DNA of 34,924 nt, taken from the NCBI GenBank assembly GCA_964549475.1, contig CAZJXH010000004.1, positions 1-34,924 on the forward strand, given 5' to 3'. The stretch is from an uncultured Oscillospiraceae bacterium. GTDB taxonomy: Bacteria; Bacillota; Clostridia; Saccharofermentanales; UBA5734. Positions 11,607-19,975 of the stretch are shown piece by piece (positions within the stretch are counted from its first letter, which is position 1; every line of letters begins with the position of its first letter). A model generated the notes under the pieces. The model had not been told where the DNA came from. It saw only the letters and a list, made by a program, of their open reading frames with translations, and ran no database searches. The translations under genes and the position numbers were made by a program.

Positions 11607-12026
11607 CTATTGCTTTATAATCATATGCGCGCCAACTGCAATAACTAATAAAAATGCAACGATGCGGTGTGTTTTCAGCCATACTGCTTTTAAATTTTTA
11701 TTGATAAAAGCCCCATACATTCCTAACCCCCCGAGAGTCATCATAAGAATCGCAGATATGATTCCGGTGATTCGGATATTGTCTGTCGAAAAAGCGATGG
11801 CGAAATGGGTCAATAAAGATGCGATGGCGATAATCCCGGCTGTTTTATGATATTTAACAATGACTTTCATGACCTTCCGATAAAAATCTGCAAATTGCTT
11901 TTTATCTTTCCCCAATTTCATAATAAATCTTTTATGAATTAATTTTATAAAATAATTCAAAATGGCTATCCCGAAACTGATTGCTGTTATCGTCCCCAGA
12001 AGTTCAATTACATCTTTTGCTGTCAT
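11607..12026 (-). CDS. Small polytopic membrane protein (139 aa, ~4 TM), uncharacterised, immediately upstream of mgtA.
   Basis: Hydrophobic helices are visible (ITAISFGIAILNYFI, IIAIASLLTHFAIAF, ISAILMMTLGGLGMYGAFI, IVAFLLVIAVGAHMII). It lies 57 nt from the mgtA start and 36 nt from the DUF1003 stop. Confidence 0.5.
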   Translation of the reverse strand: MTAKDVIELLGTITAISFGIAILNYFIKLIHKRFIMKLGKDKKQFADFYRKVMKVIVKYHKTAGIIAIASLLTHFAIAFSTDNIRITGIISAILMMTLGGLGMYGAFINKNLKAVWLKTHRIVAFLLVIAVGAHMIIKQ

Positions 12027-12061
12027 TTGGTCTTTTACTCCTTGTGTTTATTCTTTCTGGT

Positions 12062-12622
12062 TTATTTTGACTCTTCCTTGCCGGTGATATCCTTGATTCC
12101 ATTGTTCCCATCGCCCAGAGCCGCCTCATTGCTCCCAATGCCCCCATTGTTTACATTATAGGTGGTTTTATTGAAATTGATGATAATCTCATCCTGTTTC
12201 TGTTCCAGACTTTTAAGCTTATTGATGAGTTCTTCAATCAGAATTTCCGATTTCAAATTGATCTCATAATCGTGCTCCGCCCGGATCCGGTCTTTTTTCT
12301 CCTGCCGGTTCTGGCTCATCATGATGACCGGAGCTTGCAATGCGGCAACACAAGAAAGAATAAGATTCAATAGAATAAAAGGGAATGGATCGAATGGTTT
12401 GGCAAACAGCTGAATGGAGTTGATGATAATCCATACAATTAAAACACTGACAAAAATGGAGATGAATGTCCAGCTTCCGGCGAAATCCGCCAGTTTGTCC
12501 GCCATCCTCTCTCCTGTAGTAAGACTCTCCTCGTGCAGGTCGTTGATGTTCCTTGATTTCTTGCATGCCGCCAATTCTTCGATGCTTTTGTATTCGAGTT
12601 CTTTTTTCATTGAAGTATCCAT
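12062..12622 (-). CDS. DUF1003-family membrane protein.
   Basis: The central region ADKLADFAGSWTFISIF…LIVWIIIN…PFDPFPFILLNLILSCVAALQAPVIMMSQNRQEKKDRIRAEHDYEINLKSE fits the conserved DUF1003 core as I recall it. The C-terminal tail is Asn/Gly-rich. Confidence 0.6.
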   Translation of the reverse strand: MDTSMKKELEYKSIEELAACKKSRNINDLHEESLTTGERMADKLADFAGSWTFISIFVSVLIVWIIINSIQLFAKPFDPFPFILLNLILSCVAALQAPVIMMSQNRQEKKDRIRAEHDYEINLKSEILIEELINKLKSLEQKQDEIIINFNKTTYNVNNGGIGSNEAALGDGNNGIKDITGKEESK

Positions 12623-12666
12623 TCCTTTCGCGGTAATCTTTTCCGTTTTCTTTGATATATATCATC

Positions 12667-12703
12667 ATCTATATTAATATTACCCTTATCTATATTAATA
12701 TTA
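12667..12703. repeat. Two copies of atctatattaatatta (period 21), each with an internal taatatta palindrome, in the divergent intergenic region.
   Basis: 12667-12682 and 12688-12703 are identical. The TCTATAT core recurs in the palindrome at 12889-12910. Confidence 0.6.
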
Positions 12704-12849
12704 AATTATTCCTTCATTATAACCCTTTAACTATATCCTTTTTTTATTATACTTTTCTTTATTTCTGCTATTATGAATTTTACATCAATCCATGACCGTT
12801 TGCACTTTTTTTATTAATTCACACGTTTGTACTTTTTTATAAATTCATA

Positions 12850-12910
12850 TTGACAGTTCTCTATATTCGAACTATACTGAATTCATACGATATAGACGTT
12901 TATCTATATC
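12850..12910 (+). promoter_or_regulatory. Near-consensus sigma-A promoter for the arsR-arsP operon, with a downstream palindromic operator.
   Basis: -35 TTGACA at 12850-12855, a 17-bp spacer, and -10 TATACT at 12873-12878. The inverted repeat GATATAGA-cgttta-TCTATATC lies at 12889-12910, about +5 to +30, which is the classic ArsR/SmtB repressor operator position. Confidence 0.6.
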
Positions 12911-12989
12911 ATTGCCAATATCAGACCATGCGGAAAATAATAATTATAGTACAAAAGAATAGCAGAAATGGAACAGGAGTGGAAATGCG

Positions 12990-13280
12990 ATGACACACAA
13001 AGAATATGTTTTGATTTTCAAGGCGCTGGCGGATGAGACCCGTCTAAAGATCGTGGAGACGCTGTCCGGCGGAGAGTGCTGCGCCTGTAAAATACTGGAG
13101 CAGTTTTCCATCACCCAGCCAACCTTGTCCTATCACATGAAAATCCTGTGCGACAGCGGTCTTGTCGACGGCAGACGCGACGGAGCCTGGATCCGATATA
13201 CCATCAGCGCGCCAAAGCTCGAAGCCGTCCGTAAATTTCTGGATCGGATCGATCTTTCAGAGAAGAAAGAGGAAATTTAA
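12990..13280 (+). CDS. arsR: ArsR/SmtB-family metalloregulator with a Cys-rich alpha3 site (GECCAC).
   Basis: A 96-aa winged-HTH protein (…ADETRLKIVETLSGGECCACKILEQFSITQPTLSYHMKIL…). Three clustered Cys sit where As(III)/organoarsenical-sensing ArsRs carry their thiolate site. Its stop overlaps the arsP ATG (TAATG at 13278-13282). Confidence 0.85.
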   Translation: MTHKEYVLIFKALADETRLKIVETLSGGECCACKILEQFSITQPTLSYHMKILCDSGLVDGRRDGAWIRYTISAPKLEAVRKFLDRIDLSEKKEEI

Positions 13281-14284
13281 TGTTTATTTTTGAATGGCTG
13301 AATAATCAATTACTAAAAATGGATTGGCTGAATGCGCTGATCCGGCTTTTGGTTGAAAATGTGTTTGGTCTGAATGTCAATGAACAGCTGGGCGGAAGCG
13401 TCCATTTTTTCCTATATGATACGGTCAAAATTTTTATTCTTTTATCTTTTTTAATTTTTATCATTTCCTATATCCAGAGTTTCTTCCCGCCTGAACGCAC
13501 GAGGAAGATCCTTGGCCGGTTCAGCGGCCTTGCCGCTAATATCCTCGGCGCGCTTCTTGGAACCATCACGCCTTTTTGTTCCTGCTCCTCGATTCCTATT
13601 TTTATTGGATTTACCAATGCAGGACTGCCCCTGGGCGTCACCTTTTCTTTCCTGATCTCCTCCCCGCTTGTGGATCTGGCTTCGGTTCTTCTCCTTGCCA
13701 GTATTTTCAACTGGAAAATTGCCATCGCGTATGTGGTTGTCGGGCTCATTCTGGCCGTTATTGGCGGAACGGTCATCGGGAAGGCGAAACTGGAGGATTA
13801 TGTGGAGCCTTTTATTTTCAAAAACAAGGTCCTTGATGTGGTACAGGCGAAACTGTCAAGGCGTGATCGGATCAACTATTCCAAAGAACAGGTTTTTTCT
13901 GTCATCCGCAAAGTCTGGCTTTATGTGCTGATCGGCGTTGGAATCGGCGCATTGATCCATAACTGGATACCGGAAAATGTCATTGCAGCCGTTCTCGGAC
14001 AGGACAAATGGTATTCTGTGATCATTGCAACCATTGTCGGCGTACCGATGTATGCGGATATCTTTGGAACCCTTCCTATTGCACAATCATTGGTTGAGAA
14101 AGGAGTCGGGATCGGAACGGCGCTTTCTTTCATGATGGCAGTGACGGCGCTTTCTCTTCCATCCATCATTATGCTCAAGAAAGTTGTGAAAACGAAACTA
14201 TTAGGGATTTTTGTCGGGATTGTAACAGTCGGCATCATCATCATCGGATATGTTTTCAATGCATTCGGGTGGTTATTGTTATAA
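13280..14284 (+). CDS. arsP: ArsP-family permease (PF03773, organoarsenical/methylarsenite efflux permease type).
   Basis: A 334-aa polytopic membrane protein with the diagnostic TPFCSCSSIP motif (GTITPFCSCSSIPIFIGF) in which the two Cys of ArsP are essential. It is arranged as a two-halves permease. Confidence 0.8.
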   Translation: MFIFEWLNNQLLKMDWLNALIRLLVENVFGLNVNEQLGGSVHFFLYDTVKIFILLSFLIFIISYIQSFFPPERTRKILGRFSGLAANILGALLGTITPFCSCSSIPIFIGFTNAGLPLGVTFSFLISSPLVDLASVLLLASIFNWKIAIAYVVVGLILAVIGGTVIGKAKLEDYVEPFIFKNKVLDVVQAKLSRRDRINYSKEQVFSVIRKVWLYVLIGVGIGALIHNWIPENVIAAVLGQDKWYSVIIATIVGVPMYADIFGTLPIAQSLVEKGVGIGTALSFMMAVTALSLPSIIMLKKVVKTKLLGIFVGIVTVGIIIIGYVFNAFGWLLL

Positions 14285-14354
14285 TAATTTCACCGGATCC
14301 AATTATTTATATGAAAAAGCAGAAAACAACGATAGAAATCAGGAGGATCTTATC

Positions 14355-14597
14355 ATGGTCATTAAAATTTTAGGCTCAGGGTGCAAAAACTGCATCACAC
14401 TCACCGAAAACACCAAAGCGGCTCTTTCCATACTCGGCGTCCATGCAGAAATCGCCAAAGTGACCGACTTTGCAGACATCGCTGCATTCGGTGTCATGTC
14501 CACTCCCGCGCTAGTCATTGATGAAAAAGTCGTTTCCTTCGGAAAAGTGCTCAAACCAAAAGAAATTGTAAAAATTCTTGAAACGATGTCCGTATAA
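14355..14597 (+). CDS. Small thioredoxin-fold protein (TIGR00412 'redox-active disulfide protein 2' type), CxxC.
   Basis: MVIKILGSGCKNCITLTENTKAAL…VMSTPALVIDEKVVSFGKV (80 aa). An AGGAGG RBS lies 8 nt before the ATG at 14355. The longer ORF-track start at 14250 lacks an RBS. Confidence 0.75.
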   Translation: MVIKILGSGCKNCITLTENTKAALSILGVHAEIAKVTDFADIAAFGVMSTPALVIDEKVVSFGKVLKPKEIVKILETMSV

Positions 14598-14733
14598 AGA
14601 TTAATCCCTCATTATTTGTACGGAACTCCAAGCCAGGGCTGGTAAACAACAAATTATTAAAGCGCCATAAGCAAGAAAATTGAAACAGAAAACAATCAAA
14701 CAGATTTTTAATTTTTACAAGGCTAAAGATCGA

Positions 14734-14762
14734 TTGAAGGATGAATTTTCCTGTGATATTAT
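14734..14762 (+). promoter_or_regulatory. Candidate sigma-A promoter for the CoADR-rhodanese operon, upstream of the MITE insertion.
   Basis: TTGAAG (14734-14739), a 17-bp spacer, and TATTAT (14757-14762). It is followed by an imperfect palindrome TATGAG-n14-CTCATA (14764-14790). Confidence 0.4.
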
Positions 14763-14803
14763 ATATGAGTGCAAATGCATACGCTCATAAACAGGATTGG
14801 AGG

Positions 14804-14945
14804 CAGGGCAATCGCTTCCGAAAAGAAACGGATTAGTAGCAGATGGAATGCAACATGGGGACGGTTCTTGTGTTGCATAAACGAAATAAAATGAAATATA
14901 AGAACCGTCCCCATGCTCCATTTCTTTTCGGAAGCAATTGCCCTG
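14804..14945. mobile_element. Complete MITE-like non-autonomous element of about 142 bp. It has 25-bp terminal inverted repeats, a nested internal hairpin and 9-bp target-site duplications. It is inserted in the 5' UTR of the CoADR-rhodanese gene.
   Basis: Left TIR cagggcaatcgcttccgaaaagaaa (14804-14828) and right TIR tttcttttcggaagcaattgccctg (14921-14945) are reverse complements, 24/25. Perfect direct repeats GATTGGAGG flank them at 14795-14803 and 14946-14954. The inner hairpin is tggggacggttctt / aagaaccgtcccca. There is no ORF inside. The right TSD supplies the GGAGG RBS for the ATG at 14962. Confidence 0.75.
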
Positions 14946-14961
14946 GATTGGAGGACGAAAT

Positions 14962-16632
14962 ATGCGAATCATTGTAATTGGCGCAGTCGCTGCTGGCACC
15001 TCTGCCGCGGCAAAAGCACGAAGAAATACAGAAAACGCAGATATCATCATTTATGAGAAAGACCGCTTTATTTCTTATTCTGGTTGCGGCATGCCCTATT
15101 ATATTGGTGGAGTAGTGGAGCGTTCCGATGATCTGACACCACGGGACCCTGCATTCTTCAAGAGTAAATACAACGTGGATGTCTTTATTTTACATGAGGT
15201 ACTTTCGATTCATCCGGATAAGAAAATCTTGGAAATAAAAAATCTCTCCACTGGCCAAGTATTCACGGATACCTATGACACCCTTATTCTTGCCACCGGT
15301 GCAAAAGCTGTTGTTCCACCAATTAAAGGGGTTAACGGTTCGAACGTTTTTATGCTGCGCAATATCAACGATATGAACCGGATTCATTCTTTCATTGAAT
15401 CGAAGAAACCACAATCTGCGGTGATCATCGGCACAGGTTTCATCGGCCTCGAGGTTTGTGAAAACTTGAAAAGACTCGGGATTGATATAACTATGATTGA
15501 AAAGTTGCCGCAAGTCACACCGGGACTTGATGATGATATGGCCGGTTATGTGGAAGAACATCTTGAAAAAAATGGGATTTCTGTTCTGACTTCTGTTTCT
15601 GCAGAAAAAATCACCGCGAACGGAGTGATATTATCGGACGGTTCCTCGGTCGATGCGGAAATGATCATTGTATCCGTAGGAATTCGACCCGAAACGGAGC
15701 TTGCTAAGCAAACAGGAATTGAACTTGGCATATCCGGTGCCATCAAGGTTGACAAGAAGATGCGAACAAACCGGAAAGATATTTTTGCCTGCGGAGATTG
15801 CATCGAACAATTTCATGTTGTCACAGGGAAACCTGTTTATCGTCCATTGGGGTCTACTGCGAACAAAACGGGTCGAATCGCAGGAGATTGTGCAACGAAC
15901 GGCAGTCTTGAATTTCGAGGAATACTTGGTACTGGAATTTTTAAAGTTTTCGATTTGGCAGTTGCTCAAACCGGACTGTCCGAACGCGAAGCGCTGGAAC
16001 AAGGATATGACGTTGCTGTCTGCCATAATATCAAACCGGACAAGCCGGAATATATGGGAGGAAGAGAAATGGTCATCAAAGGCATTGCCGACAAAGCGAC
16101 CGGGAGACTTCTGGGAGCCCAGATCGTCGGGTTTGAGGGAGTCGATAAACGGATTGATGTTTTCGTAACAGCTATTACCTTTAAGGCAAACGTCGAAGAC
16201 CTGTTCCATCTTGATCTGGCTTATGCACCGCCTTTTTCCACTACGAAAGATCCGGTCATGTATACCGGCATGATCCTGGACAATGCCATCCACCGATCCA
16301 GGCCATTGATAACGGCGCAAGCGCTGGACGCCCTGATACAATCCGGTGAAAAGGTTGAATTGATTGATGCAAGAGTCTCTTCCCAGTATGGGAAAGGACA
16401 TATCGGCGCAGCGGATTCGATTCCCCATACAGCCCTGAGAGAAGCCGCAGCGAACCTGGATCCGAATGTCTTTACCGTGACATACTGCAACAAAGGAGTC
16501 ACCGGGAACGCTGCGCAGAATATTCTGATCAATCGGGGCTTTAAAAAAGTATACAACCTTTCGGGTGGACACGAACAATTTAAAAAATTCATGATTAAAA
16601 ACAGCAAGAAACCAGGTGGAAATAATAGTTGA
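14962..16632 (+). CDS. CoA-disulfide reductase / NADH-dependent persulfide reductase fused to a C-terminal rhodanese domain (CoADR-RHD).
   Basis: The N-terminus MRIIVIGAVAAGTSAA (FAD GxGxxG) and redox Cys in SYSGCGMPYYIGG are as in CoADR/Nox. A second NAD(P) fold (AVIIGTGFIGLE) is present. C-terminal ~100 aa form a rhodanese domain with the active-site loop TYCNKGVTGN. The ORF-track start (TTG 14938) lies inside the repeat. The ATG at 14962 has a GGAGG RBS. Confidence 0.85.
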   Translation: MRIIVIGAVAAGTSAAAKARRNTENADIIIYEKDRFISYSGCGMPYYIGGVVERSDDLTPRDPAFFKSKYNVDVFILHEVLSIHPDKKILEIKNLSTGQVFTDTYDTLILATGAKAVVPPIKGVNGSNVFMLRNINDMNRIHSFIESKKPQSAVIIGTGFIGLEVCENLKRLGIDITMIEKLPQVTPGLDDDMAGYVEEHLEKNGISVLTSVSAEKITANGVILSDGSSVDAEMIIVSVGIRPETELAKQTGIELGISGAIKVDKKMRTNRKDIFACGDCIEQFHVVTGKPVYRPLGSTANKTGRIAGDCATNGSLEFRGILGTGIFKVFDLAVAQTGLSEREALEQGYDVAVCHNIKPDKPEYMGGREMVIKGIADKATGRLLGAQIVGFEGVDKRIDVFVTAITFKANVEDLFHLDLAYAPPFSTTKDPVMYTGMILDNAIHRSRPLITAQALDALIQSGEKVELIDARVSSQYGKGHIGAADSIPHTALREAAANLDPNVFTVTYCNKGVTGNAAQNILINRGFKKVYNLSGGHEQFKKFMIKNSKKPGGNNS

Positions 16633-16936
16633 TATCTTTAAATCTCTGGCAGAAGAAAGCCGGCTTCCCATTCTGTCTCTTCTGGTACAAGAAGAAATGT
16701 GCGTATGTGAAATCGAAGATTGCTTAAAAATGACACAGTCCAATGTTTTCCGCCATTTGGCAGCATTAAAGCAAAGTAGAATCCTTGACAGCTGCAAGAA
16801 AGCACAATGGGTTTATTACAAAATCGGCGAGACCTTTATTAAAGAGAATTCCCTTCTGTGGGAGTACTTGGTGGATCATTTTCAAAAAGATCCGATCTAT
16901 CGGACCGAAATCAGAGCCCGTCGAACATGCGAGTAA
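16616..16936 (+). CDS. ArsR/SmtB-family regulator with a CVC metal(loid)/thiol-sensing motif. It is translationally coupled to the CoADR-RHD gene, overlapping by 17 nt.
   Basis: GTG start at 16616. The protein reads …AEESRLPILSLLVQEEMCVCEIEDCLKMTQSNVFRHLAALKQSRIL…, comparable to the ELCVCDLC site of As(III)/Cd-type ArsR. Confidence 0.75.
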   Translation: MEIIVDIFKSLAEESRLPILSLLVQEEMCVCEIEDCLKMTQSNVFRHLAALKQSRILDSCKKAQWVYYKIGETFIKENSLLWEYLVDHFQKDPIYRTEIRARRTCE

Positions 16937-16989
16937 TAACATACGGATAATCACCCGCAAGCATCTAAAGAAACGCAAGGTTTCCAACA

Positions 16990-17026
16990 GAGAAAGCCCT
17001 TAAGAAATAACGGCTTTCTCCATTTG
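16990..17026 (+). terminator. Hairpin after the second arsR, a possible weak intrinsic terminator.
   Basis: gagaaagcc (16990-16998), a 13-nt loop, then ggctttctc (17012-17020), followed by ccattt. The U-tract is poor. Confidence 0.35.
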
Positions 17027-17146
17027 AAACAATGAAAATATTAACAAAAATATGTATTGTATATTTAAAATTCCGGATGTATAATGAGTCATTTCTGCGA
17101 AGAGGAACGAAACAAATAGTTCAGAATTGTGATGAGGATAATACAG

Positions 17147-19975
17147 ATGGAAGAAAAGTTAATTGATTTGAATAGGAAAGACGTCACGGGGATCTATAAG
17201 CTAACCTCCAGTGATGTCTGCGAAGCCATGGGTACACGGCTGGAGGGGCTGACCGCCTCTGAAGTGGAGGACAACCACAAGATTTACGGCAAGAATGTCA
17301 TCAGCGAAAAAAAGGGGACTCCTGTCATTCTGATTTTTTTATCGAATTTTATCAGTATGATGGCGATCCTTTTGTGGGTCGGCGGTGCGATTGCGATTAT
17401 TGCAGACATGCCCCAGCTTGGAATTGCCATATGGCTGGTCAATGTGATCAACGGAGTATTCAGTTTCTGGCAGGAATTCCGCGCCGGAAAAGCGACCGAG
17501 GCGTTGAAGAGAATGCTTCCGTCCTATGCCAGAGTCACCAGAGACAATACCGAAATCCAAGTTTTGGCGGAGGATCTTGTGCCCGGAGATGTTGTCCTTC
17601 TTCAAGAAGGGGACAAGATTTCTGCCGATGCCCGGTTGATAGAAAGCAGCGATTTGCAAGTAGACCAGTCCACGCTGACAGGCGAATCCAATCCGGTCCG
17701 CAAAACCCATGATCCTGTTTTACGGGACAATCTGTCCCGATCTGAGACACCGAATCTTATTTTCGCCGGAACGAGCATTTCCAGCGGCACAGCCAAAGCT
17801 GTTATTATTACAACCGGAATGGATACCGAATTTGGCAAAATCGCCCATTTGACACAAGCGATGAAGGTCGACCCCAGTCCGCTCGAAAAAGAACTGGATG
17901 TGCTGACCAAGCAGGTTTCCATCATCGCATTGGCGGTCGGGGTATTCTTTTTCATCGCTTCTGTCTTTTTTGTGAAAGAACCCATCGCAAAATCCTTCAT
18001 CTTTGCGCTTGGCATGGTGGTTGCTTTTATCCCGGAATGCTTGCTGCCGACCGTAACCCTGTCCCTGGCCATGGCGGTTCAGCGCATGTCCAAGGAGCAC
18101 GCTCTGGTTAAACGATTGTCCGCTGTTGAGACACTGGGATGCACTTCCGTTATCTGTTCAGACAAGACTGGAACCCTGACGCAGAACGAAATGACGGTAT
18201 GCAGCCTGTGGCTGCCAAAAGAAGAACTGGAAGTCACCGGTCTTGGCTATGCTCCTGTGGGGAATGTTTTATCCGACGGCAAAGAAGTCAACATCCAGGG
18301 GCATGAGGATCTAAAAATGCTTCTCACTGCCGCCAGTCTTTGCAGCAATGCCCGATTGGTTCCTCCGGGAGAAGAGTCGGATCGTTATACGGTTCTGGGA
18401 GACCCGACAGAAGCCTGTCTCGGGGTAGTTGCCCAGAAAGCGGGATTGGATGTCCAGTTGCAGTCCAAATTGACCCCCCGCCTGAGAGAGCTCCCTTTTG
18501 ATTCCAGACGCAAACGAATGACCACCATCCACCAGTTGGAGTCCCCGATTGATGGAAGCCCCCGTATCGCTTATATCAAAGGCGCACCGAAAGAGGTATT
18601 GGAATTATGTACCGGAATCTACACCGGGGGTAGACGAGAAGAGATAACCGCACAGCAGCGGGATACGATCATGGAGGCCAATGACCGGTATGCCCGCAAT
18701 GGCTTGAGGGTATTGGCGATTTCCTACCGGCTTCTCTCCCGTGCAAATAATCTGCCGACTTCCCTGAGCGCTTATACCCCTGAATTGATTGAACAGGACA
18801 TGGTTTTTGTCGGATTGGTTGTCATGGCGGATCCTCCGAGGCCGGAAGTGGCCGCGGCAGTTGAATTATGCCGCAAAGCCAGCATCCGGATTATAATGAT
18901 CACCGGGGATTATGGTTTGACGGCTGAGAGTATCGCAAGAAGAATCGGTATTATCCGGACTGAAAATGCACGAATCATTTCCGGTATGGATCTGGGGAAA
19001 ATGCCTGATGAGGAATTAAAGGAAGCACTAAAGGAAGAAGTGATTTTTGCCAGAGTCGCACCGGAGCAAAAATATCGTGTGGTTTGCGCTCTTCAGGAAA
19101 TGGGGCATATTGTGGCGGTAACGGGGGATGGAGTAAATGATTCTCCCGCACTAAAAAAGGCAGATATCGGCGTAGCGATGGGAATCTCCGGTACGGATGT
19201 CGCAAAAGAAGCCGCCGACATGATTCTGACAGATGATAATTTCGCCTCGATCGTGAAAGCTATCGAAGAAGGCCGTGCGGTTTACAGCAATATCCGAAAA
19301 TTTATTCTTTACATTTTAAACAGCAATATGTCCGAAGGGGTTCCTTCCGCAGCATTCCTCTTCTCAAGAGGAGGTATTCCGCTTCCACTGACTGTCATGC
19401 AGATCCTGGCGGTTGACCTTGGTACGGATATGATGCCTGCCCTGGGGCTTGGAACAGAGCTCCCTGAAAAAGGGGTGATGGATCTGCCGCCCCGCTCGAA
19501 GAAAGACCGCTTATTGAACAAGCGTATTGTGGTCAAAGCGTTTTTCTGGTATGGAATGATCGCTTCTGTCATCTGCATGGGCGCCTATTTCTTTGTAAAT
19601 ATGCTCAATGGCTGGCCGGGCGTTCCATTGGCCAGTTCCGGCATTATTTACAGGCAGGCTACAGCGATGACACTTGCTTCCATCGTATTCTGCCAGGTCG
19701 GTGCTGTGATGAACTGCCGCACCGAAAAACAATCGGTTTTTAAAACAGGTTTGTTCAGTAATAAAAAAGTCCTGTTTGGTATCGTTTTTGAAATACTACT
19801 GTTAAGTGCTATCATCTATGTCCCATTTCTTCAGGATATTTTCAACACTGCGCCGATCGGCATCAAAGAATGGGCATTCCTTTTCGCGCTGCCTCTTCCG
19901 ATTGTTCTCATTGAAGAAATAAGGAAGGCGATTTCGCGCAAATATGGTAAAATGAAAGATGCAGGAGGTAACTAA
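17147..19975 (+). CDS. Cation-transporting P-type ATPase of type IIA (SERCA/Ca2+-ATPase-like), with PECL in place of PEGL in M4.
   Basis: ICSDKTGTLTQNEMTV, TGD…KGAPE, MITGD, VAVTGDGVNDSPALKKADIGVAMG, 10 predicted TM. There is no N-terminal HMA domain and no CPC motif, so it is not a P1B heavy-metal pump. A GAGGA RBS precedes the ATG at 17147. Upstream GTG/ATG starts lack an RBS. Confidence 0.85.
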   Translation: MEEKLIDLNRKDVTGIYKLTSSDVCEAMGTRLEGLTASEVEDNHKIYGKNVISEKKGTPVILIFLSNFISMMAILLWVGGAIAIIADMPQLGIAIWLVNVINGVFSFWQEFRAGKATEALKRMLPSYARVTRDNTEIQVLAEDLVPGDVVLLQEGDKISADARLIESSDLQVDQSTLTGESNPVRKTHDPVLRDNLSRSETPNLIFAGTSISSGTAKAVIITTGMDTEFGKIAHLTQAMKVDPSPLEKELDVLTKQVSIIALAVGVFFFIASVFFVKEPIAKSFIFALGMVVAFIPECLLPTVTLSLAMAVQRMSKEHALVKRLSAVETLGCTSVICSDKTGTLTQNEMTVCSLWLPKEELEVTGLGYAPVGNVLSDGKEVNIQGHEDLKMLLTAASLCSNARLVPPGEESDRYTVLGDPTEACLGVVAQKAGLDVQLQSKLTPRLRELPFDSRRKRMTTIHQLESPIDGSPRIAYIKGAPKEVLELCTGIYTGGRREEITAQQRDTIMEANDRYARNGLRVLAISYRLLSRANNLPTSLSAYTPELIEQDMVFVGLVVMADPPRPEVAAAVELCRKASIRIIMITGDYGLTAESIARRIGIIRTENARIISGMDLGKMPDEELKEALKEEVIFARVAPEQKYRVVCALQEMGHIVAVTGDGVNDSPALKKADIGVAMGISGTDVAKEAADMILTDDNFASIVKAIEEGRAVYSNIRKFILYILNSNMSEGVPSAAFLFSRGGIPLPLTVMQILAVDLGTDMMPALGLGTELPEKGVMDLPPRSKKDRLLNKRIVVKAFFWYGMIASVICMGAYFFVNMLNGWPGVPLASSGIIYRQATAMTLASIVFCQVGAVMNCRTEKQSVFKTGLFSNKKVLFGIVFEILLLSAIIYVPFLQDIFNTAPIGIKEWAFLFALPLPIVLIEEIRKAISRKYGKMKDAGGN

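Follow-up and report, generated by a model that had tools for sequence, protein, structure and literature searches.

The question raised by this locus is what a small thioredoxin does beside an ArsR repressor and an ArsP-type permease, and what the three genes serve together. In the window, which is the whole 34,924-nucleotide stretch of DNA analysed here, an earlier note had described a compact ArsR-ArsP-small-thioredoxin module. ORFs and profile searches place all three genes where they had been put, and arsR-arsP-arsE is a real, well-conserved unit that is very common in anaerobic bacteria.

12990-13280, forward strand: arsR, 96-aa ArsR/SmtB repressor (ORF call and profile matches)
13280-14284, forward strand: arsP-type permease gene, 334 aa (PF03773)
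14341-14346, forward strand: AGGAGG, ribosome-binding site of the thioredoxin gene, read from the sequence, with the ATG 8 nt further on
14355-14597, forward strand: arsE-type small thioredoxin gene, 80 aa (TIGR00412)

The stop codon TAA of arsR (13278-13280) and the ATG of the permease gene (13280-13282) have one base in common, and this TAATG is the overlap on which the proposal of translational coupling had been based. The arsP-arsE interval is 70 nt long and has no terminator according to a terminator search of the window, and the AGGAGG within it bears out the earlier statement that the thioredoxin gene has a ribosome-binding site of its own. Among relatives the arsR-to-arsP gap ranges from -13 to 85 nt, and the arsP-to-arsE gap has a median of about 41 nt. 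The window had been said to hold no arsC, arsB, acr3 or arsM, and none was found: tblastn with relatives' proteins gave no Acr3, LMWP-ArsC, ArsD, ArsA or ArsM in the window, and no further ars genes appeared in Pfam scans of its larger ORFs or among the genes called on a 99%-identical contig, these Pfam lists being the sole check for ArsB and glutaredoxin-type ArsC. No exact match to the window permease was present in the assembly index, and an identical thioredoxin occurs on a sister contig that is 99.0% identical to the window.

Conservation of the module was counted in 80 species-level Bacillota genomes, with subsets of 78 and 76 for neighbour counts. The order regulator-permease-thioredoxin recurs in these 80 related genomes; ArsR lies directly upstream of the permease in 54 of 78 loci, and the thioredoxin gene lies downstream of the permease within 400 nt in 47 of 76 loci and within 4 kb in 61 of 76. 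Neighbours within 5 kb include Acr3 (28 loci), LMWP-ArsC (21), ArsD (7), ArsA (6) and ArsM (5), and at least one of the five is found in 37/80 loci. The other 43/80 stand alone, as does the window copy, and therefore the arsenic link of stand-alone copies is by homology only. The pairing of permease and mini-thioredoxin, which the earlier note called widespread, does recur across Bacillota and also in Gammaproteobacteria: Shewanella has the order arsR-arsC-acr3-[permease-Trx]-gapdh-arsJ, with a permease 39% identical to that of the window, and on a Klebsiella IncFII plasmid the permease-thioredoxin pair adjoins arsRCDAB. The system is an ordinary arsenic-resistance module and no new kind.

The permease matches PF03773 at 229.9 bits (cut-off 32.3) over profile positions 2-293 of 294, which settles the family assignment made earlier and passes the first of the two refuting conditions named with it. 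The TPFCSCS motif that had been noticed is present as residues 97-103, at a helix break, and its Cys100 and Cys102 are the only cysteines of the protein; both are invariant in 81/81 relatives and also across the Gammaproteobacterial clade. A pseudo-symmetric motif, G254-x-P256-x-Y258, lies in the second half. The nearest anchored relative is the Shewanella oneidensis ars-island permease (39% identity), and a plasmid tblastn and a second homologue search gave only 'permease' annotations and relatives from Shewanella and Enterobacteria. Assignment as an ArsP-type permease is supported because the Cys-x-Cys pair is invariant in these relatives, because an ArsR gene so often stands directly upstream, because arsenic genes adjoin relatives' loci, and because the permease-thioredoxin pair is found within Shewanella ars islands and on the Klebsiella plasmid. 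Its substrate would be MAs(III)/Rox(III), as family membership suggests.

The permease also scores below cut-off against two models of Cu/Zn exporters, NF040736 SaoE (116 versus 325 bits) and NF033936 SO_0444 (106 versus 300 bits), and these sub-threshold matches count as evidence against the best explanation. They bear on another reading, in which the permease exports thiophilic metals (Cu/Zn/Cd/Hg) like the SaoE and SO_0444 branches, the ArsR is a metal sensor and the module is tied to flanking P-type ATPases. Such a reading can appeal to the two partial matches and the CSC motif common to both families (Haft preprint), to the P-type ATPases on either side of the module in the window, and to a CDF transporter that neighbours the module in 3/80 loci. 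However, the two matches are far below their cut-offs, ars genes make up the overwhelming majority of neighbours among the 80 closest relatives, and the ATPases on either side belong to the Cation_ATPase_N/C (Mg/Ca) type with no heavy-metal P1B pumps among them. Since, in addition, the ArsR has neither the alpha5 His/Asp site of Zn/Cd/Pb sensors nor their N-terminal Cys pair, we regard metal export as very improbable.

The regulator itself matches HTH_5 at 54.2 bits and NF033788 at 92 bits (cut-off 55). The 'unusual CC-x-C cluster' ascribed to it is present as ECCAC (Cys30, Cys31 and Cys33), but only the CxC core is general: Cys31 and Cys33, at the start of helix alpha3, are invariant in 27/27 related ArsRs, while Cys30 occurs in 1/27, the window's own, as a single-lineage L30C change. 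The clade motif of the relatives is ELCACKILE, in which the third ligand at +3 (Cys37 of R773 ArsR) is absent, and Cys31/Cys33 align with the CVC (ELCVC) of the CadC-like Lmo1102. By this placement we infer that Cys31-x-Cys33 is the sensing pair of an As(III)-type alpha3 site. Inspection of the sequence and an alignment of related ArsRs showed that the repressor has neither His/Asp ligands in alpha5 nor a Cys near its N- or C-terminus. Persulfide sensing of the BigR/SqrR type and alpha5/alpha3N metal sensing were therefore both rejected for this ArsR, because the Cys pair required for the one and the ligands required for the other are absent.

Upstream of arsR, the region contains a promoter and several operator-like sites.

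12655-12674, forward strand: third operator-like site; its ATATATA-N6-TCTATAT differs from the consensus at 1 position
12847-12866, forward strand: putative operator O1, ATATTGACAGTTCTCTATAT, imperfect palindrome, 1 mismatch to ATATAGA-N6-TCTATAT
12850-12878, forward strand: predicted sigma-70-type promoter TTGACA-17-TATACT, 11/12 match, best site in 12000-17200
12889-12910, forward strand: putative operator O2, GATATAGA-cgttta-TCTATATC, perfect palindrome

The promoter is the one proposed earlier, with TTGACA at 12850-12855, TATACT at 12873-12878 and a 17-nt spacer, and its position and sequence are kept upstream of orthologous arsR genes. A further promoter-like site lies at 12912-12941. The palindromic operator with an n6 spacer also stood as claimed, being O2, which lies at about +4 to +25 relative to the predicted transcription start; the second operator, O1, had been missed. 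The -35 hexamer lies inside O1, together with a TCTATAT half-site that falls in the promoter spacer, and the O1 arrangement ATATTGACA-nn-TATCTATAT recurs in about 20 related loci. At three or fewer mismatches the palindrome occurs in 3 copies in the window, all in one intergenic region, where 0.14 would be expected by chance. The third copy is part of a tandemly duplicated 21-nt unit and lies at a distance of 33-52 nt from where a divergent DUF1003 gene starts; the sister contig L081 has this unit only once. A link of the module to the DUF1003 gene was considered and rejected, since no relative has it nearby.

With up to two mismatches, ATATAGA-N6-TCTATAT was found in 19/26 loci whose ArsR is at least 50% identical to that of the window versus 4/28 with a more distant ArsR, and loci of a different ArsR clade have another palindrome, ATATTAG-N6-CTAATAT. 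Both operators are conserved at a spacing of 34-35 bp in 20/27 loci, and O1 and O2 switch together between the half-site variants TCTATAT and TCGATGT. Because the arrangement is conserved across about 20 genera and co-varies with the regulator clade, the reading of O1 and O2 as inverted-repeat operators that overlap ArsR's own promoter is supported. This anatomy rests on sequence and conservation, and the binding of ArsR to it is what we infer.

The small protein matches PF13192 at 92.8 bits and TIGR00412 at 93 bits (cut-off 62), which agrees with its description as an 80-aa CxxC thioredoxin of the TIGR00412 type. Its Cys10-Lys-Asn-Cys13 retains a CxxC that is invariant in 63/63 relatives, cis-Pro51 is also invariant in relatives, and the thioredoxin fold is predicted by AF2 with a pLDDT of 92 and a match to MtH895/1ILO at TM 0.79-0.81, which passes the second refuting condition. 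The pairing with the permease had been said to be of no characterised function. This was right for the ArsP-ArsE pairing itself, but the family is named, TIGR00412 (TIGR00412.2) being the 'MTH895/ArsE family' of NCBIfam, and an arsR-arsP-arsE operon has been described. Of the genes directly upstream of ArsE in 62 loci, 44 encode the permease, 7 a DsbD/CcdA-type membrane protein and 1 ArsC, and therefore ArsE travels with Cys-pair membrane proteins. DsbD_TM and membrane-thioredoxin genes accompany arsP-arsE in 11-13/80 related loci; these homologues and ArsF/ArsG-like genes are absent from the window by tblastn.

These neighbours also bear on whether ArsE is a partner of the permease at all. 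It could instead be an arsenic-induced spare thioredoxin that sits beside arsP through the shared regulator only, where it replaces thioredoxin poisoned by trivalent arsenicals, feeds a thioredoxin-coupled ArsC encoded elsewhere, or is itself an enzyme that reduces the nitro group or As(V) of the arsenical, as reported for ArsEF. The proteins of TIGR00412 are true thioredoxins, MtH895 being named as one in the title of 1ILO, a thioredoxin-coupled ArsC of the LMWP type is present in 21/80 related loci, and NCBIfam ties the family to the ArsE of the ArsEFG system. We nevertheless consider this account rather unlikely, since the gene directly upstream is that of the permease so much more often than that of ArsC (44/62 against 1/62), 43/80 loci have no ArsC nearby, and the pairing is kept in Bacillota and Gammaproteobacteria alike, with permeases that are 37-39% identical, beyond the need of co-regulation alone. 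We favour the reading that ArsE services the Cys-Ser-Cys site of the permease.

Downstream of arsE lie a gene for a CoA-disulfide-reductase-rhodanese (CoADR-rhodanese) and a second ArsR, with which the module might form a sulfur/persulfide or thioarsenical stress unit, the reductase recycling ArsE or stripping sulfur from thiolated arsenicals before export. A CoADR-rhodanese gene is found in 9/80 loci; it is the next gene after that of the thioredoxin in L012 and L037, and L002 and L010 have it at a greater distance downstream. In the window, a search for intrinsic terminators gave none in the interval from arsE to the reductase gene. However, only about 11% of loci show the association, the two genes of the window are parted by a 364-nt gap that has its own promoter-like site and into which a palindromic element is inserted, and the ArsR lacks the cysteine pair found in persulfide sensors of the BigR/SqrR type; the chance that this account is correct appears minimal. 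The 25-mer core of the palindromic element was not found in a metagenome scan, and a 15-mer gave partial look-alikes only. No Rfam family reached its gathering score in the window, and the spacer between arsE and the reductase gene gave only chance miRNA matches.

On this evidence the module is probably a self-repressed three-gene arsenic-family detoxification operon, arsR-arsP-arsE. When no inducer is present, ArsR dimers on O1 (the -35 hexamer and spacer) and O2 (the transcription start) would keep the strong promoter shut. A trivalent arsenical, such as As(III), methylarsenite or a related thiol-reactive metalloid, would bind Cys31/Cys33 of ArsR, to which Cys30 could add a third ligand in this lineage, and the arsenical-bound repressor would then leave the DNA, as the ArsR family suggests. 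The permease would export the trivalent (organo)arsenical via Cys100-Ser-Cys102, which is placed at a membrane helix break opposite the pseudo-symmetric GxPxY break; this step draws on the C. jejuni ArsP work and the model. ArsE, made with the permease, most likely services the membrane Cys pair, which it may keep reduced; alternatively, dithiol exchange may allow it to resolve arsenical-thiol adducts or to pass them on. For its exact role, reductant of the ArsP Cys pair is our tentative first choice; an arsenical chaperone to ArsP is conceivable at a lower level of confidence, and the same low level applies to an independent enzyme or stress thioredoxin. A bolder and somewhat doubtful extension is an obligate two-component thiol-relay exporter made up of ArsP and ArsE, in which ArsE would dock on the cytoplasmic face of the permease and either hand the arsenical to the Cys100-x-Cys102 site by dithiol exchange or re-reduce this site after each cycle; the permease fold is maybe of a hairpin/elevator kind, and in this lineage L30C would give a three-thiolate ArsR, where two thiolates served before, with a shifted inducer range. 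If true, ArsE would be a redox or chaperone partner dedicated to one transporter, which is as yet undescribed for secondary transporters.

The module is among the commonest arsenic-related gene sets of anaerobic Bacillota, with thousands of homologues and about 80% identity across genera, and it recurs in Proteobacteria; public annotation of its parts is still 'permease' and 'thioredoxin family protein'. The analysis provides a regulatory map, composed of two conserved putative operators with the consensus ATATAGA-N6-TCTATAT, and a small set of invariant residues that can be used as targets of mutation (ArsR C31/C33; ArsP C100/C102 and G254/P256/Y258; ArsE C10/C13), and the ArsP-ArsE question is therefore cheap to test. 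The result bears on how arsenic cycles through anoxic soils and guts, and on the design of biosensors, but would not overturn current understanding.

Among known systems, ArsP of C. jejuni (TC 2.A.119) is an efflux permease for methylarsenite and roxarsone(III), according to the summary of Shen 2014 and Chen 2015 in PMC6205960. It is of the same PF03773 family, has a vicinal membrane Cys pair, is ArsR-linked and has relatives in ars operons; the likeness is one of family, motif and gene context. The C. jejuni operon, arsP-arsR-arsC-acr3, is not known to have a small thioredoxin gene next to it, and ArsP of this species is not known to depend on one, which counts against the explanation given above. 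The closest counterpart in gene order is the arsR5-arsP-arsE operon of Pseudodesulfovibrio mercurii ND132, which is up-regulated by As(III)/As(V) (preprint 10.1101/2022.10.17.512643). It has the same order and families (HTH_5, PF03773 and PF13192) but is from another phylum and has an extra fourth gene (PF08859), and neither operator nor biochemistry is described there.

The small protein is of the same NCBIfam family (TIGR00412.2; ArsG is NF040495) as the ArsE of the ArsEFG system. In Shewanella putrefaciens 200, ArsE and ArsF reportedly reduce the nitro group of aromatic arsenicals, with ArsG as exporter, in work attributed to Chen, Zhang and Rosen in 2019, and to our knowledge this nitro-group reduction with ArsF is the only function published for ArsE. 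A membrane thioredoxin and an ArsG-like DsbD_TM protein precede arsE in 11-13 related loci. The window, having no ArsF/ArsG-like genes, offers no obvious partner for ArsEF activity, and this too weighs against the explanation given above. The closest solved structure, MtH895 of Methanothermobacter (PDB 1ILO; 36% identity, TM 0.8), has the same minimal beta-alpha-beta-alpha-beta-beta-alpha thioredoxin fold and CxxC, but is archaeal and without established arsenic context. A functional analogy only is offered by ArsD-ArsA and CcdA/DsbD-thioredoxin, in which a small Cys-bearing cytoplasmic protein of thioredoxin fold is placed beside a membrane machine that handles substrate or electrons with its cysteines, as in the putative ArsE-ArsP interaction; ArsD is among the distant fold matches of ArsE (rank 44) and has no sequence relationship with it.

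The regulator is best compared with R773/pI258-type ArsR (ArsR1 class), in which the As(III) site is Cys32-Cys34-Cys37 in helix alpha3. Both have the CxC pair in the same place, and the likeness extends to autoregulation through inverted-repeat operators that overlap the promoter, as predicted for the window. The +3 Cys37 is absent in the whole window clade, while the window's own ArsR has Cys30 at -1, and the ATATAGA-N6-TCTATAT operator sequence is specific to the clade of the window ArsR.

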